Notes: a model not told the origin generated them from the sequence alone. 63,997 bases of DNA, filler included, from Perkinsus olseni (GCA_013115125.1; 4 parts of 4 records of this genome joined end to end with filler, not necessarily neighbours in it); one strand, 5' to 3'; shown: positions 1-28,265, counted from the whole stretch's first letter. Made by a program: numbers and translations.

Positions 1-1042
1 ACCTAGTTGGGCTAAAAACAGTCGAGTTAACAGCGGAAGCATGAAGTACCCTCAGGTGTGAGTTAATATTTAATTTGAATAATTCAACTGAGAGCAGCTG
101 ACATTAGTGGGTAATGTTGAATTTGATTCACACGAAATTTGGCCACAAATGTTTGTAATATAGCTCAGGCGTGCATATGTTAGCCATTATAGGTTCTTTC
201 TCGGAAGACAGTTAGTTATTGGTATTGTTGGGGAGAAATCTGCCATGTTAACAATGATTCATGAGGCATAAAAATATATAGAACCGGGAACTGATGAAAG
301 CCATCGAAGAAACTATTTTTTTGAGTATTAATTTGAACGCAATCACTGACATGGTTCGACGCAAGAATCTTGAATCATAATTTACAACTCGTATGTGAAT
401 GAAGGTTGATACTCGTATATTACAGTAGCGTAAGTCGAGAAAAATTCTCTGAGGGTAAGCAGTACTATTAGTGGCATTGCAGTAACTAGTCAGCAAGAGT
501 GAGACGTCGATACGAAATTCGCAGAGATACTGATGTTTGTCATATTAAGATTTTTCAACTTACTATCGATACAAGGTATCACAAAGGTATTATGACTTTG
601 AGAGATAATCTGTTTATCTGACATGTATAGTAAAGTTAGTAGAACGATCCACAGGACTTAAGATAATCTGCGTTGTTTACTCGATGAGCCTGACAAAAAA
701 AACAATTCAAATACGTAGGACGTGTTGTTGGACTGATACGCATAGTTGATGGTTATTAAAATACTACAGTTTAATATTTTAATAAATATGATGCGTAATA
801 TTCTATCATCAAACCGTTTAATTCGACCGAAAAGCAAAACACAAACAACAACTGTTGATAGAATAGCTTACGCACACGATTTCAAATTGAGAATCAGCAC
901 AAATCCGAGTTTAAAATCAAGAGTAAGTTATATCGCTTTGTAATGCCTTAGTTTGTAATAGACTCTTGAGAGAAACCTCATCTCATTTTTCTCTTAGGTT
1001 CGCATAGAGCTCAGATTCAACATTTATATCAGATTAATATTA

Positions 1043-2544
1043 TCAGCTATAAGCTACGTATACATGATTGGTTGCAGAAAAGTTAGTATATTTTCTAGAT
1101 TCAGATGCTAGAGAAAGAAGCTTAACCTTACTTTGTCTTCCAGAATCAACTCGATTCCCATCACCTTCAGTATGACGAGTAGTTCCCTGTCCAGAAGAAC
1201 GAGAGTCATCTCTATGGACATTGTCTTCTTGAGAACTCTGTTGGGCTCCTGTATTCTGCGAGTTGTTGGTAGCATTTCTGCTTGCCGACGATGAATCTGA
1301 ACCGATTAATGCTATACACATTATTACATAATGGATATAAGTTAGATTTTGTAATGCAGGATAATAAGAATATAATAAACGAATGGGTTGCGATATGCGT
1401 GTATAAAAATGTAGCTCACTCAAACAATTTTCATTTCTCTACGAAAATCAACGTATATAATGATAAGCCCAATACCAATTAGTTTATGGGGATACATGGT
1501 GTAATGAAATTAAAAAACTTCTGACAAAAGAAAGCCGACTAAAAAAACAATTGTCATATTACCTTCAACATTTCCATCAATAGGTTGAGGATCTACTGGG
1601 GAGAATTTAGCGTGGTTAGCTTTACCCTCATCACAATAGTTGGGTCGTAAGTCCACAATGTGAAACACTCTGGCTTCGGTCAAAGTATGATCTTCACCTT
1701 CCGTAGGGGTTTTGACCCATCCAGATATATCCCAAGTATGAATATACTTCATCACATTGTTGCAACAGTTCTTAATCTCTAATAAGTCGAAAGATCTCCA
1801 CTCATTTTGCTTCAGGACACTATGCTCAATGAATACTTTCGTAAAGCGTAAGCCGCTAACAATCGAACCATTGATTGAACTATAATCGACAGCATCTCCC
1901 ATTTCAACAGCGGTATCAAGATCTGCCTCGAGAACAAATCCCGGCTTGCTTGTTTTCACTACGCATCCACAGTGAGTAGACCCTGAAGTTAAAGGTAATC
2001 GATTACAGAGCGAGCCTCCGCATGACATATTTAATCGAAATGATGAGAGAGATATTTGAACACGGGGTAGATGAAAATAAGCAAATGACGACGATTGTAG
2101 CTGAATAGGTATAGTAGGCAATTGTATAGAAGGATTATATTTGAAGAAGGGTTGTACGACACGAATGACACTTGTCGATCGAGTATCATCAAGGTACTGA
2201 TTGATAAATCGAGGCTCGATCACCACTACAACTTCACCAACAGAAAAGCCAGGTTTTTCCGGTACCAAAGTACGAGTACTTTCCGATGTTCTGGAGAAGA
2301 TCACGCAGCACGACGACGAAAGAAGATCAGATAATAAGAACATTCTGTCATATTCCGCTACACTTTGACTAGGTCTAGTAATACCGCGTCGATATGTGAA
2401 GAGAGTAGTCTTGAAGTTCTTTTCACTCCGCCTGATGTTCAGCAGTCTCATAGGAAGCTTGCAGCTGTCACATGATCCTCCTCTCAATACTTGTTGAAGT
2501 GAAATTGTTTTATATTTTTGAACTTGCTGTGCTGTGAGAGACAT
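1043..2544 (-). CDS. Accessory protein of the Helitron-like element; Cys-rich globular domain plus spliced low-complexity Ser/Gln/Asn tail
   Basis: 344-aa ATG-initiated ORF (1510-2544) with CxxC, CGGSLC and HCGC motifs, on the same strand as RepHel. Donor GAAG|GTAAT at 1562 and acceptor TTCAG| at 1297 join it in phase to the 1043-1423 ORF. The 3' end is uncertain. Confidence 0.6.
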
Positions 2545-2845
2545 AAAAGAATGATAGATCCAACTTATTGACCATGAATTTTAAGTGAATGTATTTAATA
2601 TACTTTCGGAAGTGATTTCATAAACGGTAAACTAGAACTCGATACGTTTTATCATCCTTTATATAAAAAACTCAATAAGTTAGTTAAACTATCCTGAAAA
2701 ACATAAAAACGACGTAGCAAACAGAGGATGGCCTGCTTTAGATAGGTCATCTACCCACGTCATACGCAATTTCGGAGCGATAGAAGCATGGACTATCCCT
2801 ATAAAGATAAATGTACGCAATTAAGTCACACTCGGGACACCGACG

Positions 2846-3530
2846 TCATATAAATTTGAAAGAAGACAGTTTAGTAAAGCTGAAAGTATTAAAACAACAA
2901 TCGTGGCCACAGTGCTCATCCACTTCGCACTGTGGCCACTCTCCCCTGTTATTAACGCAACACATTGCTCGGTAAGAATTTCTTACTAAGAAAAACAGCT
3001 TTAATGATAAAATGTTACCGATAATATCTTCATCCAATATTTCTCCAGAATTATTGTCGAGATACTCATTTATGGAAGACCTGATCGTTTTTTAGTATTG
3101 AGCTTTGGATTACGCAACGATTTGCATATGATGTGATCAACGAGGTTCTCATAGTACTACTCGAGCCAATCTGAACATCTTTAAGAGTACGAAGGTATAC
3201 TTGTTGCCAAGCATCTTCACACTCATTATTGATATCTTTGAGAATTATGTGTTTAGACGTGACCATAAGCCAGTGGCTAATACCCAAATGGACAGGAACC
3301 TCAACTGAACCCACTTAGGTCTTTCGGGCGAAGCATCACTGATCATGTTTGTGATTAGAAAGCTTCAACCCGAGCATAGGCTGATGTAATTATTCGTCAC
3401 GTCAGAGCAGTACTGCATCTTAAAAATTGTTGATCACAAATGATTATGAAATCATAATATGCAATTCGGCTAGTCACAAGTCTTCCATCCATGAACCATC
3501 GACTGTGCCGGAGAAATGTGTCAGATAAAG
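2846..3530 (-). pseudogene. Degenerate Ulp1/C48 (SUMO-protease-like) cysteine peptidase
   Basis: VPVHLGISHWLMV (ORF 3066-3314) resembles the C48 His motif PxxLxxxHW. WPQCEVDEHCGHDCCFNT (ORF 2846-3037) resembles PQQxNGxDCGxxxCxNT. The pieces are separated by stops and frame changes. Confidence 0.35.
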
Positions 3531-3767
3531 AATATCACAAATACTATATTACAATCATAACAAGAGCTGAGCGTTATAATGGGGAATAATTATGAAACAA
3601 CAAACAGATAACTTCAGATTATGTGTAATATAAATACACTTTTGAGAAGAGTTGATCTCTTCAACAATATATTTGAAGGTGGACTTCCACGGTTTACTCG
3701 TGATGTGTTAGCTGGCCGTTGTGTCTTCAACCATAGGACCTGCACTGAAGTAACTACAAAACAATCT

Positions 3768-6700
3768 CTAATCGATTCTCTGATGGAAGACGAGTGCTCT
3801 ATCCGAATATTGAGATACGATGTATCTACCAACGTCTAATATCTCAGCAAGAGAATCAGTCGGGCGGCGAAATCGTTTCCACATTCGCTCAACAGTTAAA
3901 CGATGATATTTACTGTCAGGCGAATCAAATCCTGTAATGAGTGCTGCACAAAACCATGGAACTAAAGATGGATCTTTTGTTGATGAAGAACCTTGTAAAC
4001 GANNNNNNNNNNNNNNNNNNNNNNNNNNNNNNNNNNNNNNNNNNNNNNNNNNNNNNNNNNNNNNNNNNNNNNNNNNNNNNNNNNNNNNNNNNNNNNNNNN
4101 NATCCTGTAATGAGTGCTGCACAAAACCATGGAACTAAAGATGGATCTTTTGTTGATGAAGAACCTTGTAAACGATTATGTTCTTTTAAACGTCTCGATA
4201 TACAAGTGGACTCTCCGATATAAGTAACTGATAAGAAACGTAAACTTATTAATAGATACACACATCCCCCAACTGACTGAGTATCTGGCAACGGTAAAGA
4301 AGATAAATGATAAGGCCATTGACTTGCGAGTGAGAGAATCATATTCGACGTAGCAATGTTCGCGGTACGGGATACAACACTATGTAGTATTTGTGAGATA
4401 TAGGCATCATATTGCTGAGGTTTACGTAACAATTGTCGGATCACAGATAATATTTCCATTTTATCACCCACTAAGGTAATATGATCAAGTCTTTGAACAC
4501 GCGAAAAGAGAGTGTAAAGTTGTGATCGAAGCCACAAATGATGCTTACGATCAGACAGACTAAGCTGTGCACATATTTGTGGCAGGGTATTTCCCATAGC
4601 GCGGTGAACTGTTACCGCGACATAAGGTTTGAGAGGATATTGAAAACGTTTAGCGAGAAGGCCTTTACGAATATAGAGTTCCCGAGCTGAACTAGGAAAT
4701 GAAACACATAGGCTACGCCAGCCAGCTAATTCATAATCACCGTCTTCTGGCAAGGATCTATTACCAGGAGGTGAAACGAGGATAGTTACCCGACTATATT
4801 GATTGGTTGGAATATTTGTAATTACACATAACTGGCCTTGAGAATATTTTCGATCGGCAGTGTCGTTTTGTGTTAGTCTCATTATAGCGCCTCGATATAA
4901 GAGTAGATTTTTTGGCTCCAAACATTTTTTATCAAGATAAGCTACAGATTCCCTATTGGCATTGTTCCACGAGACGCCCCCAGATGTACTCTGAATGTCA
5001 AAAGCTGTGGAAGAATGAAATTCATCTGGGTGGAGACTATTCCTGATACTTGACTCTCTTTCTGCAATGATTTCCTGTTCGGCAACACGCTTACCAACTA
5101 CTCTCAGAACAGTACTAGGTACATCATCGAGAGACGGAACGAAATTACATCTGCTATTGATTATGGAACAGTATTCATCAATGAGTTGCGCATCATATGG
5201 CAGATCCAATATTCTACCGATTTCGTTAATGCGTTGCAAGTCTGGATCACTTGCAGATCTTACATAGTGCTCTAAGACCTGCAATCGGAACATTGTTAGT
5301 ATTAATGGCGATACTAACAAAGGCTGTCCAGTTACAGGTGGTAATTGGATGGGATCCATACTTGACAGCAGCAACAAACCGCCATACGGTAAATTATTGG
5401 ATCGAATAACGCGAAAACACCTATCAAGAACGGTTATCAATTCAGAGCTAATCAAGCCTAATTCTTCAATACATAGAACGTCAAGATGACGAAGAAACGC
5501 AATTTTGTCTGGATTGCGTCCAAGAGAAAGTATGCATCTCTCAGTCATTCGATCAACGTTTATGGATGAGTTCCCTTCAAGAACAGGAATGGGCAACAAG
5601 GCATGACAATGTACCCCTCCGAATTTTACAGAAGTTTCCGAAGTCAGACTACTAAATAGAACCGAAAGGCCCTTACTAATACAATATATCCCAACAAGTG
5701 TCAAGAGGTGGGTTTTACCCACTCCCGGCCCTCCTGTTATGACAGGAAAGCGCCGGAAGCCGAAGAATCCGCTAGCATACTCATCAACGTAGTGTAATAA
5801 TGCACTCAACAGCAACGATTGTTCTCGTGCTGCTCTTTCAGGAACTGTAGTGGAATACTGTATAGTGGGTATCCAAGACAGAGGATTATCTCTTGTTGCA
5901 CTATGCAAATCTGCTTCCGTAGGGAATGATAATCTAACTTCACTCAAACATGCTTGAATAGTAGATTCTTTTCTTTCTTGAAGAAGCCTCTGCACTTCTG
6001 CAGTAGCTCGATCTCTTATCTGGGATAACAGAACACCTGGGATATCTGTCAAGATTGCCGTCTCATGTAAGCCATTGACTAAAGAATCGTAGGCTGCAAG
6101 TAGGTAACGGTCGAATAACTGAGTGCCTCCTGAAGGATAGTATAACAGTTGTTCAAGGACATACCTACGTAAGACGTGTAATATTTCGTCATCTTGGAGC
6201 GCTTCGTCAGCGTCCCATTGTAATATGTTGGAGTTTGCAAAAACATGCAATATCGACGGCTGACTGAATAAATCTAATTCAGTCGAAAACCGACCAAAAG
6301 ATAGAGCTAGATGTATAAGAAATTTACACTGATTAGTTGGAGTTATATTACTCGATACTATTACGCGTCTCTGCATCGTTCTTACTAATCTGGAATATAG
6401 CTTCTGATAACTCTCATGCTGTGGATCTAAAAGTGGTTCAAATAGGTTATGTAACAAATTATCAGCAACGTAACTATTGGCAGCGGATGTTTGAGGAGAA
6501 TTTCTTATATTTCGTAAATATTCGACACAATCCTGTATAGCATCTTCACATATGAGGACAATATGGTCTAGCATATCAACAAAATAGGTTTCGTTGATTG
6601 ATCCTTTAATATACCTCAGTAAGTGTGACGACTCTATGAAATCACTAACGGATTCACATGAGTGGTTTTTACCTGATGGTATCGGATATCTTGCAAAATA

Positions 6701-9700
6701 TTGAAAGTAAAGCTCTGGTGAGTCGAATAAAAGTAACTCCGGGGGACGAAGTGAAAAAATTGTTATCTTATCATAACTTACTTTCGATGAAATTCTATCA
6801 TTATAAAGAATACGTTGTGATCGTGTGTAAAGTCGCCATGAAGGCAGATTTAAACTTTCTCTTACTCGCAAACATTCCGGTTGAGATCCATGAGACAAAT
6901 CTGATTGAATACCAGACTTTGAAAAATACAGAGCACCCGTTCGGCTTTCGAAAGGGACAGTTGGTAAATGTATAAAAGTTAAATTAGTATACCAAGTTTT
7001 CAAATTCAATAGGTGAAATACCATCTCAGTAAATGGTGTGATACGCCCAAGATCCTTTTTCTTAGACTCCTGTAGAGCATGTCTTGAAGGATATTTTGAG
7101 CCTTTTAACTGGCCAATGTGTAATTCTAAGCATGGTTGGCCATGTGATTCGTTGACATCATAGGGATTTACGGAGGCCACTTTATCTACAGTGATTGTAG
7201 AATCAGGACTTTTAACTTTCACAAACATAGCAGCTTTAGCTTCAGCTGCGGCGATGTATTTTGCTATGTACCGGCTTCTTCTATACCGATCACAATATAA
7301 CAAGTTGCACTGACTACGATGCAGTGCCCATAAATGACTAGATGTTGGAACAAAATGTTCATGGCTGTCCGCTGGATAATAATATTTGCCTCCAACCATA
7401 CTATCATTCCAATAAATGTCTCCAGTTGAGACATCTACATGGGCAAGCCCCAAGTGGACTAACAACTGTACTGCAGCTTTATCATGATCTGTGATGTATT
7501 CCTTGAATGAATATGCTTCAGATGCAGGATATAAAGGTGTTCTGCATTTAGTTTCATTACTATCACTGGACATCCTATGACACCGAAAACCGGCAGCTTC
7601 GCAATCATGCTGCTGGATACGAGTAGCAGCATCTCGTAGATAACAATAATCAGCCTCAGATTCTATGAGTCCGATGCTCATTAAATATTCTTTGTTGTTG
7701 AAAAGTCTGGAGCTGGAGCATACTATTCTGTTCAAAGAGTCAGCAGCTTGTGCTCGACTCTCTTTTACTTTGATCAAACCATGACTATGTGGCAAGTTTC
7801 CACTATGGCTTTGCCATTCTTGTCGGTACCACACACTATCTATCGATCCTAACGGTTCTTCAGGACTCCGTAAGATATATTCCCAAACATATTTTGATGC
7901 TCTTTCACTTGAACGAATAAGTTGAACAGCAATTGATAAATCTGTCGATCGTGATACATCTGTATCACTATCAATACAACCTAATGATTCAGCCTGTTGG
8001 AATATAGGCGATATCCCGAAATGCGAACGCATACTGATTGTATGCGTGTAGAAGAACTGTGGATCGAGCTTAGTGAATGCAGATAATTCATTGATTCTAC
8101 GTCTAGAATCTACACTGTCAAAGCTCATGGCACTTTCAACATTATGGTGGGTATAATAGCCAGTGAGATGTTCATACCCGCGGGTTTGAACAAGTCTTGT
8201 GTCTGATACCCGGAGCTCCAAGTTAACAATAGCATCAAATGCATGGGTAACATATCGAGGATCTGTTCCGGTCAAAGATGCTCCATCTTTGATTCGAGAT
8301 CGAAGCATTTGATCTATCCCTGCATATCCTAATCTCCGATTGTCTTTGGCATTGGAAAACAAAAATTGAGGAATAGCACCTGGGAATAAACCATCTTCTG
8401 CTTGTGCATAGAATATGGACGGGAAAGTGTCAGCTTCAAAATTAAGTAAGGGAAGACACTTTCCTGGATCTGTGGAAACATAATGTTGAATGAACCGCTT
8501 TTGAGCTAGGGAACCCTTGATTTTCTTTGTTTTTCGTTGTAGCAATTGGCTATCTGTATTGAATATGATATGTCTAGGTATCGACTGTAACTCCGTGTGT
8601 GAATCACTATAATTGGGGAGGAGAATGGCGGAATCCGTGTTATAAACATACTTCAAGTCTGTAGAATATGAATCTGTGGAGAATAAATCACTAGTACTTG
8701 AAACATCACTATTTGCAGAGCTTGCTGAATCTCCATAAGACGTGCTAGACTCTGACGGAGACTGCAAATCAGCGCATGGAATCGACTGATCAAAATTCGA
8801 TACTGTAGAGCTATTTTGAGTAACGGAGATCGATGAAAAGGAGTACTCCGAGGAAGGACAAGTTCGGATAGAAGAACAGCTACCGGTCGAAGATTGATCA
8901 TCTAATTTGTCCGTTACAAAAGGTGGAAGTGTTTGCTCTCCTGACCTGATAGACGACGTGTGTTTTCTACATAAACAGTTGGTACAATGCAAATAACAAC
9001 ATTTGATGTAACCTGTACGATGACACCGGGTACTTCCTAACAGCCCGTCTGTCGTGCTACAACAGACTAGTGATTTACATTGACTGAATAATAGCGGTGA
9101 CTTATGTAACTTACAGTATAATGGGGATTCATCTACTATGTCACGAAGATAATCAATCTTGTATTGCTTGTATGTCTCATACTGATACTGTTCGTAAATA
9201 AGGAACTGGCATCGGCGAAGTATTTCGTTTGGTATACTTTGTACTTCATCTATAACAGGGGTTGTTGAAATACAATGGGTAATATATCCTAGACGAGTGA
9301 AAGACTGGAAATAACATTCACCGAAAAATTTTGTTTGATTATCCTTATCATAACTATCACGTACATATCCAACACATCTCCATTTGAAATCTTTGTTATT
9401 ACAATGTAGCTCTGACGGAAAGTTTTGTAATCCAGCAGATCTAGATCTGCAAACGAGGATAACCCTGACATCATTTCTGAGTGTTGGAATCACATATGAC
9501 GATATATCTTGGCTGGGTAAAAGACGAGCAACGTGAACACCAGGTATCGTTCCTAGAAGATGAATCAACTTATACTGACTACGGATATCATCCATATCAG
9601 CAGAAGCAGCGATACTGGTCTGAATGTCATATGGTTTTTGGACTTTAGCATAAGGGTTATGTCTGCCTAAAGCCCTCAAATTAATCGAAAAAACTTTAAC

Positions 9701-12189
9701 AGTTAAATATCGTAAGACATGCCCTCGCCACGTCTCTGATATGCATGTAGTAGCAATATCAGATAGTGCCCCCCATAAATAAGGTACACCAGACAGAATT
9801 GTAGCGAGACCCCAAAATAATCTTAAGTCTTTTTTTAAATCGTCCCTTGTTAATATCTTACGCGAAGAAGGAATCCCAGTTGATACACACTCAAGTATTC
9901 TCGGTAACCACGGTAAATTAATCGTTATGGATATAGTGGTAGAGTCATCGATCTTATGTTGGATCGTATGAAAATCGGTAAATATTCCACTATATAATGC
10001 TTTGCGACATGCTAATAGATTATCAACATTGAAACGAGTAGCAGATTGTTGGCATAATATGACTTTTTCAACTTCTGCTGATGACAAACGTCCTCCTTGC
10101 AGCATATCATCTACAACTTCTTTAGTCAGTTCACCTGTTCTCTGTAAATGTCGTAACCTATAATGTACATCCTCTCTACATGCTATCTGTAATCTTTCTG
10201 ATTCAAATAGTTGGGCTGATGTAACATCCCATCTTCTCCTGTTCTGAAGCATGCAAGAACTGAGACCACTATAGGATCCAGTGACACGCGATACTTCATA
10301 TGCATTGACATTATATTTCTTGAGGAATGGTTTAACAATCTGAGGAGCCAAAACTAGACCTCCTAAACGATCACTTGTATGACAAGGTCTATTATACTGG
10401 ACAGGGTTATATGCAACAGCTACATGTCTCATAGTACTCCCATGACAATGATCTTTACAGGTCAGGATGCAAAGTCCTTCTCTTTCGTCGATCACCAGAC
10501 AAGGTCCTATTTTCCACTTCTCAAGGAATATCCAAGACTTTAGCCAGTCATATCGGGCGGCTGCTAGGTAATCGCGATGAACTTGATCACCACGTAATAG
10601 CAAGCCAAGTTTTTGCATCGATGCATACTGTCTAACTAAGGCTCGTTGCACACTCACAAAACCTGCATCTTCTAAGAATTCCTGAGCTCCACAGTAGCAA
10701 CGGACGCGTGCTACACATTCTTCGTTTAAAGCTCTTCGTAGCTCAGCACCTTTCATAGTATTTATAGCTTGTAATAGTCTTTGACGTTTATGTGTGAGGT
10801 CTTCGAAACAAGGAGCAGGATGTAGTAGTGTTACGTTTGTGAAATTTCTATGGAACTGTGATCGAGAAGGTAACCATGCTACACGCAGCTCGAAAGGAAT
10901 CCATTCCCATATAGGCAAGAAGCCTTCTATGACCATAATGTATGCAAAAATACTTGGCCAGGCGACACTCCATACATTCTTCCAAACAAGAGTGTTAGAC
11001 GAACTAATATAAACATAGCACGACGGACAAACAGCATAGGACGCAGCACCTGCGCCTTTTCGTAAAAGGACATATTTTCGTTTAATAAAAGCATTATCAC
11101 GAATCTGTTGACATTTGAAAGGATAAGATATAGTAGATGAGCGAAGGCAATTTTGACAAGTTTGTTTCAATTTATTTATGTATAAGTCGTTAGTAATATT
11201 ACAAGTAATATATTTTGCATTCCCAAATACGTCAATAATCTGGATGACTTTCTCTCTACTACACGAACTCTCAGAATAATCAATATTACAAGTATGCTTT
11301 TTACTCATTTCGGCCTTTCTACTCTCCAGGTTACAAGGAGCATTATGTGTGCCAAATTTTTCTACAACCGGAATTTTATCAAAGCGTGCTGACGAACTTC
11401 GTCGACTCACGCTACATCTTACACATGTACCATCCTTTTCCAAAAATGTTCCACAAACAATACACTTGGCCACTGAACCATGTTTTCGGCTCCTTTTCGG
11501 CTCATCATACCGTACACGTTCCGTAGTGACATTCCTAGTTATTGATGATGTAACTGGAACAGAAAAGCAACATCTTCTACAATGACTGTGAAAGAAAAAA
11601 CCCACTTACCAGGATTTGCCAAAGGATTGGAAGTTCTTAAACTCGCATCTCCCCTCGATAGTACCCTTCTCAATACAACATAATGGCCCGCACCAGCTCC
11701 CGCATTCGTCGAACTTTCCCCCACATGACTGTATTCGTGACCAACAAATACTGGCTCTCGCTCCCTGCCACCCCTTATTCCCTCCGGAACATACACATCT
11801 ACAGTTGGCGGAACGTTATGCGATGATTCCTGCCAACTTATATAACCAATGGGCCTTTCAATAAGTTGACATAAAGTATATTGGAGTACCGGTCTGGCAT
11901 CATCTCTCAAAGCAGCTTCCACAGCGCTCTCAATCGTTCCGCCGGCGTATCCCCAATAATCCGCTAAGAAATCTTCATCCAGTTCTCCTCGACGCACCAA
12001 ATCCCCCATATGATTAGCCGTAAGTTGATGTACGAGCCGACCTCTCTCTCTATCGTCAGTTAATGTTCGTTCTTCAACGCACGAAGCAATTACAGCATGG
12101 AAGTAACAGTTACCATCCCCTGCAACATTTCTGAAGAACTCTAAAACTTGCCCATCTTCCAATACTTGATGCCCATCTGGAAAACACAC
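3768..12189 (-). CDS. OTU-Rep-helicase-GIY-YIG fusion transposase (~2,730 aa; exons ~12189-11610 and 11553-3768 after collapsing the 74-bp overlap around the N gap)
   Basis: OTU: VAGDGNCYFHAV...GHYVVL. HUH Rep motifs: FFYTHT (~8040-8056), EWQSHSGNLPHSHGL (~7776-7819), YIAKY (7256-7270). Helicase: GGPGVGKT (5711-5734), IEELG, DPIQLPPV, RFQYPL...TVHRAMG, QLYTLFSRV. GIY-YIG: GCVYLLIS...TYIGES...RRLKEHN...PW...ITGF...VERMWK. A GT-AG intron at 11609-11554 joins the two ORFs in frame. The true start may lie in an upstream exon. Confidence 0.88.
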
Positions 12190-13244
12190 AAACGTGACAT
12201 TTCCAGAATAATAACAATTCGTTAATAAAAATCATTAACCAATTATTAAGAACAAACGCCGTTAAACGATTAATATCCAATCACACACAACCCGATAATA
12301 TCATCTGAACTAACACCATGAAAATCTATTGTAGAAGTTGACCGTTTTGATCGAGAATATACTTAAACGCTATTGTAAATAAATTATCACAGTAACACTC
12401 TTCAAGCATTTCAGACAGAAAGAAAATCCTCATCTTTTGAACCATCAGTTATAACTCCCAATGAGGGCCCCCATCTATGCACTACCAATCCTAAGGTCCC
12501 GTTGAATATGTGCAGCATGTCGCCGTAAGTAATCATTCCATTCTACTGCTTTAGCACTTCTCTCCGCAGGCTCCGCATAAAGCAACGGATTAGCTGGTCC
12601 ACGCGATACGTTGACAGGTATCATGGAAGTATACTCCAACAGAAAAATCTGCCATAAAGTTCATCCATACTATGAAAATTCGTCGAGAACTCAAACGTTT
12701 GGAAAATACTACTCAATCATGTTCTCGTGACATTACAATCAAACAATAAGTCGCGTGTAAGTCCCATACCATACCATATTATGATGGGCGTATGCAATTG
12801 ATAAAATTACACTCCATCACCTTTACTCGCTCAGACTAGTCAATAGAACAACAGTAAATCAGCCATGAATTAACATTCAAATTTCACTTAAAATTTTCTA
12901 ACAACATGCATTCCACAAGCCCTCGTCAACATTGCTCGCATCTACTTTACTCAATCTACAACACGGTAGATTCGACAGCAACGCAAATAACTCAACTCAA
13001 CTCAATAACCAGAACTGAAAAGCTATATCGATCAACATGGCGACCGCTTTTACACATTATCTTCGTAAGACTATATTACGTATAAGCAGCGACTACCTAA
13101 GATAAACTTGCTGTGGTGATCTAATTACAACCACCCCCAGCTACATACAAAACTTGAGCGAATTTCAACGGTCAATTCGCGAGAACGTGCTAATCGACGA
13201 GCAATAGCGTAACATACAGTTGACCATGGAATTTGCGCACGCCC

Positions 13245-13273
13245 GGGCGGGGACCCCTCCCCCGCCCTTCTAG
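13245..13273 (+). other. GC-rich hairpin + CTAG, candidate transposon terminus
   Basis: GGGCGGGG (13245-13252) pairs with CCCCGCCC (13260-13267), followed by TTCTAG and GTTTTT. Confidence 0.5.
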
Positions 13274-13339
13274 GTTTTTGACACTAGGGTGCTTCACCTA
13301 GAATAGATCACAGTAACTCTCTCACGAGATTCTTTGTGA

Positions 13340-15150
13340 AGATATGGGAATCTTAAGAAGAGCTTCCATTGCGGTCGCGACAGTACTTACAATAGCAATG
13401 TTGGCAATGTTATCTGCGGCCAGACGATGAATAGCGGGTGCTTATCCTACAATCACGATCGGGAGCTGCCCTGCGCGCCCAGGTCTGACCCGGTCTACTC
13501 TGTCGACCACGAGGACTGCCAGCAAAATCCCTTCGAGATAGGCGGGATATCACAGGACGATACATTCTCCCGACACAGAGGTCATGGACACCACCGGCAG
13601 CAGGGCAGCTCGACGCTGCTCCCTCCAGGTGTCCAACTTTCCGATGCCATCGCATTCGATGCGGGCGCTGCCTCCAATACTGTTACACTACACACCCCTG
13701 GACCAGTGGTTGTGTGCTACTGTCCCCTGGCCGACAGTCAGGGCTGTCGTGATGCCACACTCTGGAGGGCGCCCTTGCGGTGAGGGTCTCACGCCAGATG
13801 AGGCCCTATACAATATTCTGTCAGGTTCACCGTATCCGGACCGACAGGGATAAAGGAATTTATTTTCTCGGCCCACGTCCCCGTGCGCTTCGAGCTGGAA
13901 GGTCACGGGCTGTCATCTGCCCCTGGCTACCTCAGACTCATCCAACCAGCGGAGAATTGCAGCTCCAATGACGGTCGCCACTTAACGAGTCCTCCTTCCG
14001 AGAAGTTGGCTTCCCTCAAGCAACCCAAACACGGGTCTCGGAAATCTACATATCGGTTGCCCCGACCATTGCTATCCTGTCACTGATGTAGGGGGGTCCG
14101 AGAGCAACGTCCCGCTTCAAGGTCGTGATGCGGGACATGTGCGGTAGGGGTAACGCCGCATGGCTGTTGCTTCGTACCGCCACACTGACAGGTGCGACGA
14201 AACAACGACAACTGTGATTCTGTCTACATCACCATGGACTCGGTCATCTCGGCATCTACCATCAAATTTAACGGCAACCTGGACTCATTGAGTCCGACTC
14301 AACGATGGCGACGTAAATTGGAGCGTCCCAGCATTCTGCACGAGCGACGGCCTCAGATCATCTCCCTCGGTGACAACATCAACCCTGGCGACCACATCTC
14401 CGAGGAGGAGTTCGACCTGGTGAAAGGATGGGCTAGGTGCTCAGTGAGAGTCCAACGACGCCGATGGTGTGTTGATACGTATGCCGGTATCTCCGGCTTT
14501 TATTTTGTCGGCAACCCTGTCACAGTGATGGCTGACGACCCTGCCACAATGACTATCCCTGTTGGATGGTCCCGGAGCCCGGCCCCGCAGGCCCTCAGGC
14601 CATGGCGACTCTCCCTGCTCAGGTTGTGGCTACGGATAGTCTGGGTCGTGCTGGGTATTGGTATTCCCACTCATATGCGGCTACTAAGGAGAAGGTCGTC
14701 AGTAACTCCCCCATCACCGAAGCCGAGCTGTGCTATTCGTACGCTCAACAGAATGACTACCACGCCCATGTAGCCTATCAAGAGTGCCTGTGGACCCCTA
14801 CCCGCAGCTCTCAGGTTGGCCGTGTGACCTTCGTGGACCCTCCGCAAATGTCGGCGTCGATCCACCTCACAGCTCGGCAAGTAGAGGCGAGAGCACCGGT
14901 AGTCGTCAAATTCCGAACGGGCGGTGACCCGGCAGCCAACCCGATGTACGGTCGGCGCCCAGGTGACACCCAACTCATAGTCCAGGTGCTCGTGCCGTTT
15001 ACCGCATGGATCAGTCCAAGATACCTTTTTCGCAGGTACAAGATTCGGTAGTCTTCGACTTGCTAATCTCGACCGATGAGGGCTTGACCTTCGAGGAGGC
15101 CACTGCGGGAGGTGAGAAGCTTTAACGTCAGCTTGTGTGACCAGTAACGA
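13340..15150 (+). pseudogene. Frameshifted fragment of a large cysteine-rich alveolate-type secreted/surface protein
   Basis: Protein-like segments in successive frames (VVVCYCP...GC...W; FELEGHGLSS...YLRLIQPAENC; ISGFYFVGNPVT; VGRVTFVDPP) broken by stops and frameshifts. GC-richer than the adjacent element. Confidence 0.35.
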
Positions 15151-16720
15151 CACTACCAAGATGTCGTCGGCGTATAGTCATCTTCGTCCTTACCAAATTT
15201 CCGGAGAATCATAAAATAACTGCGACTTAGACAACAGAAATAATTACCTTCTAGGTCGCCCTTGGATCCCCTAGGTCAGACCTGAGGAAACTCAGGTCGA
15301 CGGTGAGATTTTAGGGGTGGCTAAGATACTTCCAAAGTGTGCGGTGCACCTCCTCTCGCCACGTTCAGATATAGATTTCTCGGCGAATCGAGTGAGTAGT
15401 GCCAAGCAGTCGGCCTGCGGGCAAGTGATCAGGGAGATGTGGACAGATCATCCCAAGGGCTTTCCAATACCGAAAGGGTGAGTGGCCGGGGTAGCTGCGA
15501 GTGTAGCGATGAGTGCCACCTCACATACTCTTGCTTGGTTGCCTCCCCTCGGTCCAAGCTTCCCTTATACGTCGTGCTGTACATGGTCGATTCGCCACGT
15601 TCCTCAGCACGAAAGGCGCTTCCGGGTGTCACGCCAATTCCGCTGCGGTTTTCTTAGTGTTAGAGTTGTTAGTAGAGCCGTCCAGGTTCGGCGCGGCGCC
15701 AATGTATATGCGTACGCGTATGAAGTTAATCGATCTTTACGAGTTAGCTATTCTCTTAGTTGCCCCTTTTTCATATATTGGCTCTTTCCGGCCTATCGTG
15801 TTCGTCAATCGCGGACTGGTCCTACTATCGTTAGTGCTCCTACGACTCCCATAACACTTAGTGTGAAGGCCTGAGCATTCTGCAGCAGTTGGCTCATGGC
15901 CCCGAAAGGTCTTGCATAATGATGGGACCTCAGCCCCGATGGGCTGCAACCGTTTCATGCAGCGAATAATGGGTGGGCGAGATCCGTGCGTACCTGCGCG
16001 AACACGCCCTCCCCAGATAGCTATAATAATAGTGTTACAGATACCAATAGTGTTACACAGTAATAAGAGGTGGATTGTCATTTTAAATGAAATCTTAAAT
16101 GACTCATTTAAGATATATCGAGGGTGTCGATGGTGGTCGTTGGACAAGTTAAAATCTCCAACTTGAAGGTATAGTAACAGTGATAGTGGATATATAGTCA
16201 CCTAATAGCTTCAACAGTGTTGAACCAGCTTCAGCCGCTGTGGTTATTGTCAAAGGCGTGGGTGGAGTTCAAGTCGTGGAGTCGACTGTTGACTCGATGG
16301 GACTTGCGGAATGAATCACCAGATAGCTTCGAGTGAGTTGACCGAACGATCGTTGTGGTTGTCGGAGACGTTGGTGGAGTGTGATTAGCGACAGTGTTGT
16401 GCAGTTGGAGCTGTTGGCCTCGCGTTGGGAAGGCTTGGAGCATTCCTTGAAGAGAGATTAGTAGAGAGAGCAGAAAGAGTAACCTGGTGTTACACCAGTG
16501 GTGTAGATATATGTGGTGGCTGGCCGTCGTGAGGAGCTCGCAACTCGAAAGTTAGGGCCGGCTGGATAGGTCGCAACAGTAAGCGACGTTGCTGATGTCG
16601 TTGTCAGAAGGATGTTGTTGAGCTTGCATTGGAGAGGTTTGGGGGGTGAGTGACAACTGGTACAGTGACAACTGGTACACCCCCGGGCTCGTACAGGCTT
16701 TATTCGGTACTCCTTTCATT

Positions 16721-16820
16721 NNNNNNNNNNNNNNNNNNNNNNNNNNNNNNNNNNNNNNNNNNNNTTAATTAATTAANNNNNNNNNNNNNNNNNNNNNNNN
16801 NNNNNNNNNNNNNNNNNNNN
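16721..16820. other. Artificial contig spacer (N44-TTAATTAATTAA-N44)
   Basis: 100-bp spacer with six-frame-stop core at 16765-16776. Confidence 0.95.
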
Positions 16821-16890
<70 letters not shown>

Positions 16891-17260
16891 GAAGGAGAAG
16901 AAGACTAAACAGACCTAGTGTTATTATAATAAGTGCTCTTCCTGTATCCAGCTTCTTGTTGTTGTGTTGTTTACAGCTGCTGCTGTTGCTGCTGTTGCTG
17001 CGTTCCCACTCAATGATGACTAGAACAAGAACAGTTGATCTCACTTGATCTTGAAGTTGATGATCATAATGATTCATTCTTATCATCATCCACAGGCATA
17101 TAATCGATAATGATAGTGATGATGATGTTCATCGTATGCATGCAGATCATCGCACTTTATATTATCGTCTGGTCTTTTATCACTTCTGCTATAAACAGCA
17201 TGCAGGTCATCATTATGTCGTTCAGGTGCTGCTGCTGCTGCTCGTCTGTAATGCTTCCCC

Positions 17261-17297
<37 letters not shown>

Positions 17298-19835
17298 GTC
17301 GCTGCTTTTTATTCATCTTCACCACCTCCCTCGTTCCCATACTATTCTCTTTGAAGAATTTCATGGTATTAGAATCACCGCATCCCCGATCATGACGACA
17401 ATGTCGCGACGGTATTAGTTTATCATTACCCTTTAATAAACGATGTGTTCGCTTCATGCACTTCCTCTCCTCTTCTTGCTTATGTCTCTTCACTTTATCA
17501 TTTTCATCATCCACAATAACCCGATTACCCCTCTTATCATTATTTGTGTCCCCAAAACTACGTAATGCTTTCATTCGCTTTTCGTTATGACAATCGTCTT
17601 TGAGATTATATGAAAATGGTAGATGATGATAGGGAGGTAAGGAACACCGCAAAGCGAGTAGGAAGTCTGATAATTCAACAGTCATGTTGTTGTTCAACCT
17701 CTCATTATATTCATAGTACTGTGTAGCCATTAACTCTCGAATGGCTTCAATGCTATCACCTGAAGCTGACTAGTAGCACCACAAAAAGCATGATAATGAC
17801 ATTACTGCTGCTGCTTGTTGTTGTTGATGATGATGATATTACTACCTGTGAATCCTGATAGATCCAATCCCAATGCGAGATCTTGTATTGTTGGAACACC
17901 TTTCCGTGTTATATCTAATAAATTATAAATGTTGGTCCATGTGGCTGGTGTGGTGTTATGATGATGATGATCAGATGCAGAACATTTGATGTTCTCAAGA
18001 TGATACCTGAACAATAATGTTGCCGATCAATAAACCCCTCCCTTACCAAAGTTTCGTTAACAGTGTGGATGATTTCCTCCCTGATGAGCATCTAGTTCTA
18101 CCGTTGTCACAATTCATATTATTATTGTTATAATATTCATCAGCCGGCATAAGAGACGAGGTATTGCAGCATCTTCGGCTCCTCTCCTTGACAATACTAT
18201 TCATGCCTAGCTCCATTTTGGTAGTCTCATATCCGGTAGCATTATCATTAGCATTATCATTACATGCATCATCATCATCATCATCATCATCATGGTGGTG
18301 GTGGTGTTGGTGATGATGCTTGTGGCCGCCGTCTTCACGTGATGCACAATCCGAGAGTGATGCACAATATCGTGCAGGAGACAGCGATGATGATGATGAT
18401 GATGATGCTAGTGTACACTTTATTATGGGTTTCTGAGTTATGGTTGTTGGTTGTGTAGTTGCTCTTTTGTCATTATCATACCGTTCAACCTGAGTACCAT
18501 TAGGTACTCGAGTAATGTCAAGCCCAGCAAGTGGTACCTTATCCATGCGTATCGGAGGTATCTTGTTTGAACATGAGCTTCGGGTTTGAATATGGCATTT
18601 CTTCTCCAATCCCAAAAGATCATTGTTGCACATCATCCCGCCCCTGGATTCCGTTAATCCGTCTCCCTGCACTTCCCTTGTTTCCTCTATAGCTCCCTTG
18701 CCACTATCACTGTTAATCTCCATCAACGTTGTGGTGGTGGTGGTGGTGGTGGTGGTGGTGGTGGTGGTGGTGGTGTTAGTATTATTATTGCAGTTATTAA
18801 TACCATGTATGATTTGATTGATATGTCTCATCTTGATGTCGATACTCTTTAACAATGCATCCTGTTGTGATAGTATAACATCCACTGCATTCATACCATC
18901 ATATCGGTGCCTGTGGTCATCATCATCATCATCATGAACATCATCCTTAGCGTCGTCGTCGTCGTCGTCGGTGATGATGATGATGGTGTTGAAGCTATTA
19001 GTATTCCTATTATTATTATCATCATTATGTTGTTGTTCTTGTTGTTTGAGAAGAGTTCGAACATTGGCCACCATATGGGTATCATTGAAGTTGCGTCGTG
19101 GTCGTCTCGATGTTTCTTCGCTTGTTGTTGACGTGAGTGAACCTTCATCATCATAATGATGATGATGATGATCATGATCATGAGAACAGTACTCTATTGT
19201 ATTACTGTCATGGTTTTTTTTATTATTATCATCAGATAGTATCTAGTACCACTACTATTATCCGTCCATTGACTATGACGACTATGACGACTATGACGCA
19301 CCTTTTCCTCCTCATTATTCTTCTCCTGCTGATCCTGTTGCTGTTCATTGTCTTCCTCTCGTATCAACATCAGATCCATCGAAGACGATGAACTTCCTCT
19401 TCTTCTTTGTCTCCTCTGTTTTCCATCATTCATTCTTGTATCATCATTGGTATATAGATAATCTTCATCTGGTAGTAATGTTAGTGATGGTATCAAGGGT
19501 AATAAGAGATGAACAGCTTTTTCCATATTCCCCATCCTCGTTGACAAATCATCATCATCATCTCCCTTCCCCTGGTGTATTGATATCTTCGATCCCAATA
19601 ATGTTCCATCTCCCACCGCAGCTGTTGTTGTTGATCCCTCACTTTCTTGCTGCCTTTCCCTTCCTTCGACTTGGGATGTTGCTTCTTCTTCTTCCTCTTC
19701 TCTAGCTATCAACAATGCTATCGCTTCCGCCGTTCGCGTTAAAGTGAATTCTGTGAATCCCCCTCGCTGCTCCGATAGTATCATTCCTGCGGGGTAACAG
19801 GATACGACAGGATCTTCTTCCATCAATCACAGCAG

Positions 19836-19876
<41 letters not shown>

Positions 19877-20994
19877 GCAGTGTATCATTACTTTTCAGCT
19901 CTTCTTCCTCGATTCCATCCGTACCTTCAGTTTTCCCTCCGTCCACTACTACACCATCATCACCATCATGATGAGTAGAAAGTAGTAGTTTATACTTGAT
20001 AGGATTGATAACTTTCTTCGGAAAGAGTATTACACCAGCGGGATGTCGATTAACCTCTTTACATAACATATTGTTCACCATGAGCTTGGACTCTAGTATC
20101 TAAATATTAACAACTACCACTACTAACAACTACCACTACTAACTACTACCACTACTAAGTACCACTACTAACAACTACCACTACTAACAACTACCACTAC
20201 TAACAACTACCACTACTAACAACTACCACTACTAACTACTACCACTACTAACAACTACCACTACTAACAACTACCACTACTAACTACTACCACTACTACC
20301 TCTATGTAATGATACATGTTAAGGCATTCATCTCTTTGTTTCAGTACAAGATTCTTCAAGGAGTTAGCCATCACACGAACTTCATTAGCCTCAGACGCCA
20401 ATGCACGGATTGTCTGATGATAATAAGATTCACACTTATGATGATGAAGGGCTACTCGAGGGAGAATATACCATGGGGAGGGTCATTCAAGGTGGTGGTG
20501 GTGGTGGTGGTGGTGGTGGTGGTGAACTACCATCATACTTCGTCTTGTTCCTGCAACATTTGTTTAACTATCGAACTTTCTCTTTCGTAATCGTCATCAC
20601 TCATCATTAGTTTATCGTCATCATCGACATATATATTATGATAACTCTCCTTCACCAACCTGATCATCATGCTTATCAAAATAATCATTATCATCAGACA
20701 TAATGATCTAGTACTGGTAAGCTTCTTTTACAAGCTTTCTCACAACTCTCCCTATTTCCCAATCCCTCTTCAACCTGTTCATGCCATCGTATGATGATGA
20801 TGATGATGATGATGATGCTTGGCGTCTATCATCATCACCACCACCGTTATCATCGTGGCAGCAACAGCAGCAGCAGCAGTAGGTCTCCCTGGTATTTGAT
20901 GATGTCTCATCTGTTAGCTTGCCCGTAACCGCTACATCATTGCGATCTATAATAGTATCGGTAGAGCAGCATTGATTGATGATAGCTTTCAATC

Positions 20995-21062
<68 letters not shown>

Positions 21063-23434: not shown

Positions 23435-23478
<44 letters not shown>

Positions 23479-23480
23479 CA
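16821..23480 (-). CDS. One or more multi-exon low-complexity hypothetical genes (boundaries unresolved)
   Basis: Chain of minus-strand ORFs (17086-17730, 18043-19074, 19194-19826, 19827-20081, 20708-20992, 21303-21893, 22706-23026, 23211-23423) rich in D/N/Q/T/H/S homopolymers; no recognisable domain. Confidence 0.4.
20111..20300. repeat. Minisatellite, ~16-bp unit CAACTACCACTACTAA with variants, ~11-12 copies
   Basis: Direct reading of the tandem array. Confidence 0.9.
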
Positions 23481-23564
23481 TAGGATACAAGAGCAGGTTT
23501 CATCATCATTTCATCAGTCCGTTGCCTCGACGATCGCACCCTCAATGATTATGAGTGATTATGA

Positions 23565-24479
23565 TTATGATGATGAGTGAAAGAAGTTGATAGTAGTAAT
23601 ATAAGCATAGTCACTGGTATTGCTATTACTACTACCATCATATGATGATGATGATGATCTATCCAGCACCATCGGTGATTCTTGAAGTACCCCCCTATTT
23701 CTTCTCTTCGCTTGCTTTAACCGTTTTATTCGGTAGTTGTTGTTGTTGTTGGTTTTCCTCCTCATCCATCTTTTATATTTTCGTAATATTTTGCATTTAG
23801 TTACTGAGTAAATGATGCTCTTAATACCATATTCAATCCTCGACACTGTATTCTCGACATATTTATTTATATCCTTCTTTCTTCTCATATAATATCTCAG
23901 TAACACTGTTATAGCCACTAGAGCCGTACATGAGATACTTAATAATAGTACTCTCATGAATGGAGCAGTGAAATCGCCTTCACCGCCGCCCTTGGCAGTA
24001 TTGGCATGCTCAACAAGAAATCTACTACTACTATTACTATTACAACAACCTCCTACTACTACAAGTCGCCAAGCCTCCGATGATGATGATGAGACGATAT
24101 AAGAAGAAGAATTGTGCACCTGAAGAGCACCGAAGAGTATACAATGATTAGTAATATCCCCTTGACAATATTCCATTACTTTCATTAGCCTATCGTCGTC
24201 ATGATGATGATGATGCTGTAGTAGTGAGGTTGTAGTAGTGAGGTTTTCAATTGAAGAAGTGATACTACCATTAAATACTTCACGTGGGTTCGGGTTGTTC
24301 TTGTCGAGTAAGATGCGTAATAGTGTTGTATTATAATAATGAGCCATAACATGATCGTTAGTATCATCAGCTTGCACATTATGATGCGCTTCAGTCTTCC
24401 CTGAGGGTATCACCATATCGATACTGGTGATAAGAACAAAGATGAAAGGTGGAAACGCTAAAATGGAGAATAACAACAC
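23565..24479 (-). CDS. Hypothetical membrane protein
   Basis: 304-aa ORF with an N-terminal hydrophobic stretch and a second TM segment (VLLLSISCTALVAITVLL) followed by a basic stop-transfer RYYMRRKK. Confidence 0.5.
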   Translation of the reverse strand: MLLFSILAFPPFIFVLITSIDMVIPSGKTEAHHNVQADDTNDHVMAHYYNTTLLRILLDKNNPNPREVFNGSITSSIENLTTTTSLLQHHHHHDDDRLMKVMEYCQGDITNHCILFGALQVHNSSSYIVSSSSSEAWRLVVVGGCCNSNSSSRFLVEHANTAKGGGEGDFTAPFMRVLLLSISCTALVAITVLLRYYMRRKKDINKYVENTVSRIEYGIKSIIYSVTKCKILRKYKRWMRRKTNNNNNYRIKRLKQAKRRNRGVLQESPMVLDRSSSSSYDGSSNSNTSDYAYITTINFFHSSS

Positions 24480-24721
24480 ACGATAATCCTGATCTGTTGA
24501 TGATGATTATGATAACAACACAAGTACATTCTCAAGTATCCAAGGAATACCTCTTATCGTTGTTGGAGTTGTTGTTCTACTACTACAACTGATGATGAAG
24601 ATGATACTGATGATGTCTCAAGCCTTATCAAGGCTATGAGTCATCATGACGATGGTGGTGGCAGTGTAGTAAGCGTATTTAAGCGTATCATCTTTCTTAT
24701 CTTGCTTATCATGATTACTGT

Positions 24722-26046: not shown

Positions 26047-26177
26047 GATAAGGGCAGACAAGGGAGAAGAACAACAGTAACAACAAAAACAACAACAACG
26101 CCATTCCATGCATTTAGCGCCCGCCCTAGCGATCGATTACTTCGTCGGAGCTTTTAATTATCTGTGCATCATCGAAT

Positions 26178-26190
26178 ATGTCGGACTATC

Positions 26191-26221
<31 letters not shown>

Positions 26222-28230: not shown

Positions 28231-28265
<35 letters not shown>

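Follow-up and report, generated by a model that had tools for sequence, protein, structure and literature searches.

Helitron-like rolling-circle transposons shape eukaryotic genomes, and it is still unclear how the strand that they transfer is integrated and how its second strand is made. In Helraiser, the bat Helitron, the Rep domain nicks the DNA and binds the 5' end via a tyrosine, the helicase unwinds the strand, and a second tyrosine cleaves at the other end and carries out strand transfer. The canonical Helitrons (HLE1) have a hairpin located 10-12 nt before the 3' end and insert between A and T without duplication; the second group, HLE2 or Helentrons, is recognized by terminal inverted repeats that are short and asymmetric and by insertion between T and T. 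According to the accessible parts of the reports cited here, Helentrons encode a RepHel protein in which an apurinic/apyrimidinic (AP) endonuclease follows the helicase, together with an OTU-type protease (PMC6431247, PMC11417382), and a DUF6570 domain upstream of Rep is an HLE2 marker (PMC11417382). The AP endonuclease probably has a function in the machinery of Helentrons. In one moss family of HLE2, HelenSM92 of Sphagnum magellanicum, a GIY-YIG nuclease is described as a capture (PMC11417382), and a third, deeply divergent clade, "HLE Paramecium", is found in an alveolate and inserts in telomeric repeats (PMC13085455). Here, we describe a giant RepHel gene fused to a GIY-YIG nuclease in a 63,997-nt stretch of DNA from Perkinsus olseni (GCA_013115125.1), hereafter the window.

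The window is a pseudo-scaffold in which contigs of ~16.7 kb are joined by spacers of the form N44-TTAATTAATTAA-N44, with stops in all six frames, at 16721-16820, 33479-33578, and 50148-50247. Because the contigs are joined artificially, only positions 1..16720 represent the real neighborhood of the gene. It appears very likely that this gene encodes the transposase of an autonomous rolling-circle, Helitron-like transposon, intact and probably recently active, and a member of a deep and widespread clade whose RepHel core is permanently fused with a large N-terminal module and an SLX1-type GIY-YIG nuclease. A sequence-only reading of the window had proposed a divergent, apparently intact Helitron-like lineage, and in this respect it is borne out, as it is in the identification of a giant RepHel transposase with a GIY-YIG nuclease in the place of the Helentron AP endonuclease.

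The RepHel-GIY-YIG gene

The gene (12189..3768, minus strand) spans ~8.4 kb and, after removal of one predicted intron and collapse of an assembly gap, reads as a single frame of 8,193 nt, or 2,730 aa, in which the sole stop is terminal and no residue is X, in agreement with the sequence-only reconstruction. On the minus strand, the corresponding stop-to-stop open reading frames (ORFs) are 3962..11605 (2,547 aa), 11539..12231 (230 aa), and 3768..4175. The gap, a run of 99 N at 4003-4101, is bordered by an exact 74-nt duplicate (3929-4002 is identical to 4102-4175), and in contigs of the runs X1 and X3, which represent two other assemblies, position 3928 is joined straight to 4102. These contigs skip the gap together with one of the duplicated copies, which are therefore an assembly artefact, past which the frame continues to the stop at 3770-3768. 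The 56-nt GT-AG intron at 11609..11554 is a prediction, for which two observations argue, namely, that the main ORF contains no methionine ahead of a CxxC (zinc) knuckle conserved in relatives, and that the seven spliced introns of the neighboring gene are all GT...CAG, with five of the seven in the range of 45-50 nt. No spliced contig across 11554-11609 is present among the contigs listed, where uncovered parts are uninformative and contigs cannot prove the absence of a splice. Chance as the origin of the frame is excluded because 2,547 stop-free codons at 39% GC coincide with collinear homology at E = 0 over ~1,700 aa, the partners being other giant proteins. The features of the gene are as follows.

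3768..11553, minus strand: main exon, with the zinc knuckle, N-terminal domain (NTD), Cys cluster, Rep, Pif1-like helicase, GIY-YIG, and the stop at 3770-3768 (translation and homologues)
3771..4285, minus strand: SLX1-like GIY-YIG nuclease domain, spanning the gap artefact (motifs and family profile)
3929..4101, no strand: assembly artefact, consisting of the duplicated 74 nt and 99 N (exact duplicate, absent from X1 and X3 contigs)
4343..5845, minus strand: Pif1-like superfamily 1 (SF1) helicase, with Walker A GGPGVGKT starting at 5734 (Pfam PIF1 and PDB matches)
6926..8458, minus strand: Y2 HUH Rep domain (motifs, homologues, and a Rep-only profile compared with PDB)
8969..9115, minus strand: invariant Cys cluster, a putative zinc finger, upstream of Rep (alignment A1)
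9923..11170, minus strand: conserved NTD (BLASTP and hidden Markov model, HMM)
11554..11609, minus strand: predicted 56-nt intron GTAAGT...CCAG, in phase, linking the OTU-like exon to the main exon
11610..12189, minus strand: OTU-like exon, with the Cys codon at 12108-12106 (GDGNC) and the His codon at 11685-11683 (GHY) (translation and sub-threshold Pfam match)

The Rep domain contains all three motifs of the Y2 HUH type (hhTxT, HxH, and YxxxY) that had been read from the sequence: FFYTHT, beginning at 8056; LPHSHGLI, with the histidine codons at 7789-7787 and 7783-7781; and YIAKY, the two tyrosines of which are encoded at 7270-7268 and 7258-7256. In A1, an alignment of 18 sequences, H1252, H1254, and Y1425 are invariant, as are both threonines of motif 1, which the window protein shares, and Y1429 is conserved in at least 90%. 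The Pfam model Helitron_like_N matches the window protein precisely where the HUH motif lies (13.2 bits, E 0.1), and among 19 long homologues, it reaches the Pfam cut-off or exceeds it in six and has E <= 0.01 in ten. When the 511-aa Rep region was searched, 547 representative proteins, counted at 50% clustering, were matched at E <= 1e-3, 303 at E <= 1e-10, and 97 at E <= 1e-30, and many of these are 2,000-3,073 aa long, with the matched part in the middle of the protein. A Rep-only profile built from 28 sequences (A3) and compared with 177,635 PDB sequences had a single match, the transposase of the bat Helitron Helraiser (7LCC; E 0.0031, 19.4 bits), and the alignment consists of three collinear segments that are Rep motifs 1, 2, and 3. 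The Rep region, then, does match HUH profiles, via Helitron_like_N in the relatives and Helraiser with the Rep-only profile, and judging by motifs and profiles, it is of the Helitron type.

The helicase follows Rep on its C-terminal side within a single ORF, the arrangement that defines Helitron-like elements. The motif set that had been attributed to an SF1, Pif1-like helicase is present (Walker A GGPGVGKT, Walker B CIEELG, MDPIQLPPV, and TVHRAMG), and the identification is confirmed by Pfam PIF1, at 28.2 bits (cut-off, 25.9), and by Pif1 helicases in PDB, with E of 1e-9 to 1e-7 for the single sequence and 7e-25 for the full-length family profile. The same profile matches the helicase of Helraiser with E 8e-22, both halves of the helicase being collinear. 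The glycine and lysine of Walker A are invariant in A1; the Walker B motif of the window protein has EE in place of DE, a variant common to 7 of the 18 aligned relatives.

The C-terminal nuclease of the window protein displays the motifs CVYLL...TYIGES...RRLKEHN...VERMW, that is, the hairpin, Arg, His/Asn, and Glu motifs of the SLX1/URI branch of the GIY-YIG superfamily, within which SLX1 is nearest. Pfam GIY-YIG gives 16.6-20.1 bits on the window protein (20.1 on the domain alone), below the cut-off of 22.6, and is found in 15 of the 19 long homologues; the GIY-YIG tyrosines are invariant in A1 and are present in the window. With the family profile, the best solved relative in PDB is SLX1 (E 5e-16 to 1e-10), followed by the bacterial UPF0213 (E 2e-5); with the window protein alone, the SLX1 match has E 0.43. 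Assignment of the nuclease to the SLX1 type, which had been claimed from the sequence, is accordingly supported at the level of the family. In 74 family proteins, the sequence continues for more than 32 aa past the helicase, and 73 of these possess the nuclease, invariably 4-27 aa downstream of the helicase block; 21 of the 22 helicase-bearing proteins that lack a GIY-YIG match terminate no more than 32 aa past the helicase match. Because 73 of the 74 extending proteins carry it, the nuclease is a hallmark of the clade rather than a capture by a single element, and it occupies the post-helicase position of the Helentron AP endonuclease, as had been suggested for the window copy. Moreover, GIY-YIG is fused in essentially every complete member of the clade, and this argues for a second nuclease as a functional component of the machinery of some rolling-circle transposons.

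The family and its N-terminal module

The RepHel-GIY-YIG architecture is shared by a large family. HMMs cut from A1 were run on 170 family proteins, 68 of which are at least 2,000 aa long, and among the latter, 56 show the order NTD-REP-HEL-GIY, eight NTD-REP-HEL, three REP-HEL-GIY, and one NTD-REP; the domain order is constant throughout the 170. In A1, Pfam detects GIY-YIG in all 18 members, PIF1 in 16, Helitron_like_N in eight, OTU in three, and DUF6570 in none. Five relatives are collinear with the window protein over ~1,600-1,900 aa (E 0 to 1e-144) and align again over the N-terminal 240-400 aa, and BLASTP comparison of the NTD with these five yields E of 1e-11 to 9e-40. The NTD HMM matches 86 of the 170 family proteins, always upstream of Rep; the domain has no match in PDB, and none in Pfam at E up to 10 except for PUB at chance level. 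Between the NTD and Rep, the six residues of the Cys cluster, C810, C827, C840, C848, C853, and C858, are invariant in all 18 sequences of A1.

Members of the family occur in multiple copies. One cluster at 90% identity has 165 members, among which the 15 listed are of 363-2,686 aa, from truncated fragments (363 aa) up to full copies (2,686 aa), on contigs of 17-630 kb; further clusters have 50 and 16 members, and in another, six copies are located on contigs ranging from 120 kb to 1.4 Mb. The nearest relative of the window protein (P0164), 57-61% identical, is encoded on a 13,975-nt contig, and in an unrooted FastTree of 60 family rows, built with no outgroup, the two form a long-branched pair with 100% support within one of two main clades. 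Database searches with the Rep region and the helicase region recovered family members only (6 and 9 proteins, respectively). There is no relative in viral_contigs, and a 6-sequence alignment searched against metagenome_contigs found one weak locus of 5.3 kb (L001). A fragment of a family member, 33% identical to residues 782-1600, fills a 2,512-nt contig (L002), the one match in genome_contigs, of a metagenome-assembled genome labelled Candidatus Poribacteria; this is most likely a mis-binned eukaryotic contig and does not count as evidence of a prokaryotic host. Among 219 proteins, two have 2A-like (ribosome-skipping) motifs near the N-terminus (P0005, residues 44-54, and P0007, residues 68-78; GVEPNPGP and GIESNPGP), and no 2A-like NPGP motif is present in the contig of the window gene (1..16720). 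TPR repeats were observed in one further protein (P0167).

The OTU-like exon is a less constant part of the architecture. The N-terminal OTU protease proposed from the sequence holds at the level of motifs, GDGNC (the Asp/Cys loop) and GHY (the His loop) being separated by 141 aa; the profile matches are sub-threshold, and the placement is unlike that in relatives. Pfam Otubain (Peptidase_C65) matches with E 0.002 and 17.7-18.1 bits, below the cut-off of 24.3, and PF02338 (OTU) has no match on the exon. A family OTU HMM run against 119 ORFs of the window picks only the OTU-like ORF at E < 0.01 (E 0.00099), aligning the Cys loop only; an hhalign comparison with A4 likewise covers the Cys loop only (13 columns, probability 3.5%); and in a phmmer search of PDB with the exon, otubains appear at E ~1, outranked by chance-level antibody matches. 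The call of a putative OTU-like module is, hence, based on the two loops, Cys and His, and on the sub-threshold Otubain match. Pfam finds OTU in 3 of the 19 long homologues, above the cut-off in one of these. In P0005, P0007, and P0165, the OTU domain follows the CxxC knuckle, whereas in the window protein, the OTU-like module precedes it, and in P0016/P0155, OTU is located beyond GIY-YIG (residue ~2336 of 2537), such that accessory domains shift within the family. Because placement differs among these proteins, the position of OTU is labile, and that of the window may be a separate acquisition.

The novelty that the sequence-only reading had left to a database search has to be divided. The window copy is not a one-off, and a GIY-YIG-bearing element, HelenSM92, is already in print, at least in the accessible part of its description; the RepHel-GIY-YIG clade itself, apart from this mention, has no description in the literature searched (without Repbase and subscription journals). 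Because the copy belongs to a large existing family, the novelty resides in the family rather than in the copy. The records of the family that were consulted are either unnamed or labelled "hypothetical" or "GIY-YIG endonuclease", and because of this, the family may be missed by current annotation.

The candidate mobile unit and the alternatives

The gene appears to be contained in a mobile unit at 1..13301, which on the gene strand would read 5'-CTAGGT...CTAGGT-3', with hairpins on the 5' side. The basis for this delineation is the pattern of contig breaks. In X3, a single variant-free contig of 13,128 nt corresponds to 1..13301 of the window without the artefact and shares a 30-nt overlap with the flank contig (13272-13699). 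Past ~13.3 kb, the flank is fragmented into contigs of 166-1030 nt, with allelic variants at 13639-14063, and the GC content changes from 39% to 53-59% at ~13.2 kb; flank contig 2 of X1 aligns only from 13295, with 23 letters unmatched to the window. On the plus strand, the hexamer ACCTAG occurs only twice in contig 1, at the two ends of the unit, and six times in the whole window. The features of the unit outside the RepHel gene are listed below.

1..13301, minus strand: candidate mobile unit with RepHel and ORF2, ~13,128 bp after subtraction of the 173-nt gap artefact (ends suggested by contig breaks)
1..6, plus strand: ACCTAG hexamer at the left, gene-distal end, CTAGGT on the gene strand (sequence match)
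13296..13301, plus strand: ACCTAG hexamer at the right, gene-proximal end, 5' on the gene strand (X3 contig 8 ends at 13301)
13245..13303, no strand: two adjacent hairpins inside the right end, GGGCGGGG/CCCCGCCC at 13245-13267 and TTCTAGGT/ACCTAGAA at 13268-13303 (DNA fold)
1510..2580, minus strand: ORF2, an orphan of 356 aa stop to stop, downstream of RepHel inside the unit (ORF call)
2903..2939, no strand: hairpin with a perfect 13-bp stem and an 11-nt loop between the RepHel stop and ORF2 (100% complementary inverted repeat)

Of the two hairpins at the right end, the first has an 8-bp GC stem, and the arms of the second are the hexamer itself, CTAGGT and ACCTAG. The DNA fold of this region has a z-score of -2.2, with 6 of 200 shuffles folding equally well, and a terminal role is proposed for these hairpins. 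Comparison of the left end with the inverted right end reveals, by eye only, two shared 6-nt blocks, CCTAGT and AAAAAC; no convincing terminal inverted repeats were found at the ends, which MAFFT did not align, and the 5' flank on the gene strand ends in TT. The window copy may have moved recently.

Several observations weigh against the interpretation of this gene as an intact, recently active transposase. At the level of the protein, comparison with Pfam, a check that the sequence-only reading itself had proposed, puts PIF1 alone above its cut-off in the window copy, GIY-YIG, Helitron_like_N, and Otubain being weak. The calls of Rep, helicase, and GIY-YIG are firm because the homologues score well, and the weak scores of the window copy would fit with the family being overlooked by annotation. 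At the level of the gene, no start codon was found: there is no in-frame ATG upstream of the OTU Cys loop, and a model of an additional first exon (ATG ~12621, donor ~12492, acceptor ~12178, with an intron at ~12178-12491), albeit in phase, is contradicted by an unspliced contig that covers 12018-12898. Combined with the lack of an ATG before the conserved zinc knuckle, the lack of a visible splice at 11554-11609, and the EE variant of Walker B, this would be compatible with a recently dead relic, that is, an open copy that no longer transposes or is no longer expressed as one protein, for example, because the OTU and RepHel ORFs are separate or because the 5' exon was lost. We consider such a relic extremely improbable given 8.2 kb without a stop and a full set of intact catalytic motifs; EE is shared with the aligned relatives noted above, and the absence of splicing is not demonstrable from contigs.

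At the level of the unit, the ends rest on contig breaks in one sample: in X1, a 13,374-nt contig that covers 1..13247 crosses the left end unbroken by 300 nt and stops at 13247, and the RNA-like contig of the neighboring gene starts at 13097, within the proposed unit. The gene-distal end has no significant hairpin (z-score of -0.7 against shuffles), and no canonical Helitron termini (5'-TC and CTRR-3' with a 3' hairpin) could be recognized at the candidate ends, where the hairpins are on the 5' side of the gene. Furthermore, the 64-kb window contains one copy only. The single copy and the missing canonical termini, along with a long intact frame that implies selection, a short intron of the host type, and low-level cover in an RNA-like run, could all be accommodated by domestication, whereby a single-copy, immobile host gene would employ its Pif1 and SLX1-like domains, for example, in DNA repair or replication-fork processing. 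What makes this very unlikely, in our view, is the behavior of the family, in which relatives form multi-copy clusters with truncated members and the closest relative is only 57-61% identical, on its 13,975-nt contig, together with the retention of the three Rep motifs and both catalytic tyrosines, and the contrast between a variant-free unit and a polymorphic flank, with contig breaks at matching hexamers.

Finally, the k-mer depth of the unit exceeds that of the linked flank, 175 against 83-103 in X1 (2.0x) and 548 against 115-131 in X3 (4.2-4.8x), but these ratios are confounded by GC content (39% against 55%), and depth is not copy number. This dependence of depth on the sample, the location of several relatives on contigs of 10-21 kb, and the identity of the hexamers at the two ends, which would suit a shared nick site, could point to a rolling-circle replicon of ~13-20 kb, episomal or virus-like, that is also able to integrate, with a Rep-helicase initiator and a GIY-YIG that aids integration or resolution. 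However, the 30 nt at the start of the X3 contig differ from those at its end, so that no circular or tandem junction is seen; DNA and RNA-like contigs run from the unit into the flank; other relatives are embedded in contigs of 0.1-1.4 Mb; viral_contigs contains no match; and neither a capsid nor any other viral gene was seen, ORF2 being an orphan. A replicon of this kind, therefore, appears highly improbable, and a Helitron-like transposon with an intact transposase gene remains the preferred interpretation.

The remaining features of the unit and its surroundings can be described briefly. ORF2 matches nothing in Pfam, and no homologue of comparable length was found; it is covered by an RNA-like contig, 1131-2831, and a minus-strand splice removes ~689-1130 (442 nt, GTAAGG...GTCAG) downstream of it. 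The hairpin at 2903-2939 (z-score of -5.4; none of 200 shuffles folds equally well) sits inside a short Cys/His-rich frame, 2846-3091. To the right, a neighboring gene on the plus strand, 13097-15368, has its seven spliced GT...CAG introns, of 45-257 nt, in the run X7, which is taken to be RNA as a guess; the protein start encoded from its ATG at 13344 is hydrophobic and resembles a signal peptide (MGILRRASIAVATVL...), and the larger ORFs have no Pfam match. Further right, in the short segment 15650-15860, contig depth is very high in each of the four runs (reaching ~1.9e5 in the RNA-like X7), loose ends are numerous on either side, and Rfam has no match; the segment resembles an element that is highly repeated or highly expressed. 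Rfam has no match in the window at the gathering score, with a chance-level match only, at 15300-16720, and no tandem repeats of note were found. The run X8 was considered as an empty site and rejected, because it lacks the unit and the flank alike.

Among the other contigs of the window, the one at 16821-33478 is AT-rich (~40% GC), with ORFs rich in homopolymer runs (D, N, T, H, S), and carries a RIO1 kinase at 26130-27866 (Pfam E 3e-59) and a WD40-like ORF at 24722-25330; from 33579 on, the GC content is mostly 45-56% (mean ~52%). AT-richness as a sign of foreign origin was rejected: the GC content at third codon positions is 0.29 for RIO1 and 0.30 for RepHel, and the contigs are joined artificially.

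A putative mechanism and comparison with known systems

The enzymatic activities of all the domains can be predicted from their motifs and homologues, and by analogy with Helraiser, a sequence of events can be envisaged. The Y2 HUH Rep would nick one strand at the end of the element and become linked via tyrosine to the 5' phosphate; the Pif1-like helicase would unwind the strand in the 5' to 3' direction; and the second tyrosine would cut the other end, with the strand passed to the target. The GIY-YIG nuclease, whose relatives are structure-specific, would most likely nick the target or the second strand, or else cleave a flap or a branched intermediate, and its cut could supply the 3'-OH that primes synthesis of the complementary strand. 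The OTU-like module, if active, might be an accessory cysteine protease or deubiquitinase.

With confidence that falls somewhat short of even, we further entertain the possibility that the family is a separate, unnamed major lineage of eukaryotic rolling-circle elements, beside HLE1, HLE2, and the Paramecium clade, distinguished by the obligatory fused SLX1-type GIY-YIG, the large N-terminal module, and ends unlike those of canonical Helitrons, with the same CTAG-containing hexamer at both and gene-proximal hairpins. In such a lineage, Rep would cut the same site at the start and at the finish, and GIY-YIG would nick the target.

Among the described systems, the canonical Helitrons, represented by Helraiser (7LCC), share with the window protein the Y2 HUH Rep with its three motifs followed by the Pif1-like helicase in one ORF, as well as Cys-rich segments upstream of Rep, and the two are collinear at motifs 1-3 and in both halves of the helicase. 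The two differ in that the Rep match is very weak (the 19.4 bits given above), in size, at 2,730 aa against 1,496 aa of the Helraiser chain, and in the addition, in the window protein, of the NTD, the OTU-like exon, and the fused GIY-YIG. The candidate ends differ as well: instead of 5'-TC...CTRR-3' with a 3' hairpin, they read CTAGGT...CTAGGT, and the hairpins lie on the 5' side. With Helentrons, the family has in common an endonuclease after the helicase and, in the window protein, an OTU-like motif corresponding to the OTU-type protease, but the endonuclease is GIY-YIG and not AP/Exo_endo_phos. No Exo_endo_phos domain was found in the sets of 19 and 18 family proteins scanned, and no DUF6570 in the 18 A1 members at E <= 0.01 or in the N-terminal 1,028 aa of the window protein at E up to 10, such that the domains diagnostic of HLE2 are missing from these proteins. 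In the HELIANO survey, as far as its accessible text goes, all but four of 20 added domains are in separate ORFs, and OTU and EN (the endonuclease) are not among the four; here, in contrast, all the domains are in one ORF. HelenSM92, compared by the available portion of its description only, differs in that GIY-YIG is a family-wide hallmark here. HLE Paramecium is likewise compared by description only, and the accessible part of that text makes no mention of GIY-YIG or OTU (PMC13085455).

Outside the Helitron-like elements, the nuclease shares with SLX1 the pattern YxL...YIGxT...RRxxEHN...FExxW. SLX1 carries a C-terminal zinc finger, whereas the window protein has the nuclease domain only, with ~50 aa beyond it and no Cys-rich finger, and we know of no partner of the SLX4 type. 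The IS91-type elements recognize a short tetranucleotide next to one end; IS91 and ISCR lack a helicase and GIY-YIG, and the similarity is a functional analogy, not homology. LINEs use an AP endonuclease that nicks the target. Penelope-like elements, in contrast, use a GIY-YIG endonuclease domain (PMC6431247, in its accessible part), and with these, too, given that there is no reverse transcriptase here, the analogy is one of function and not of homology. If the family is indeed a lineage of its own, its GIY-YIG would be an independent counterpart to the AP endonuclease of Helentrons, paralleling the division between LINEs, with the AP endonuclease, and Penelope-like elements, with GIY-YIG.

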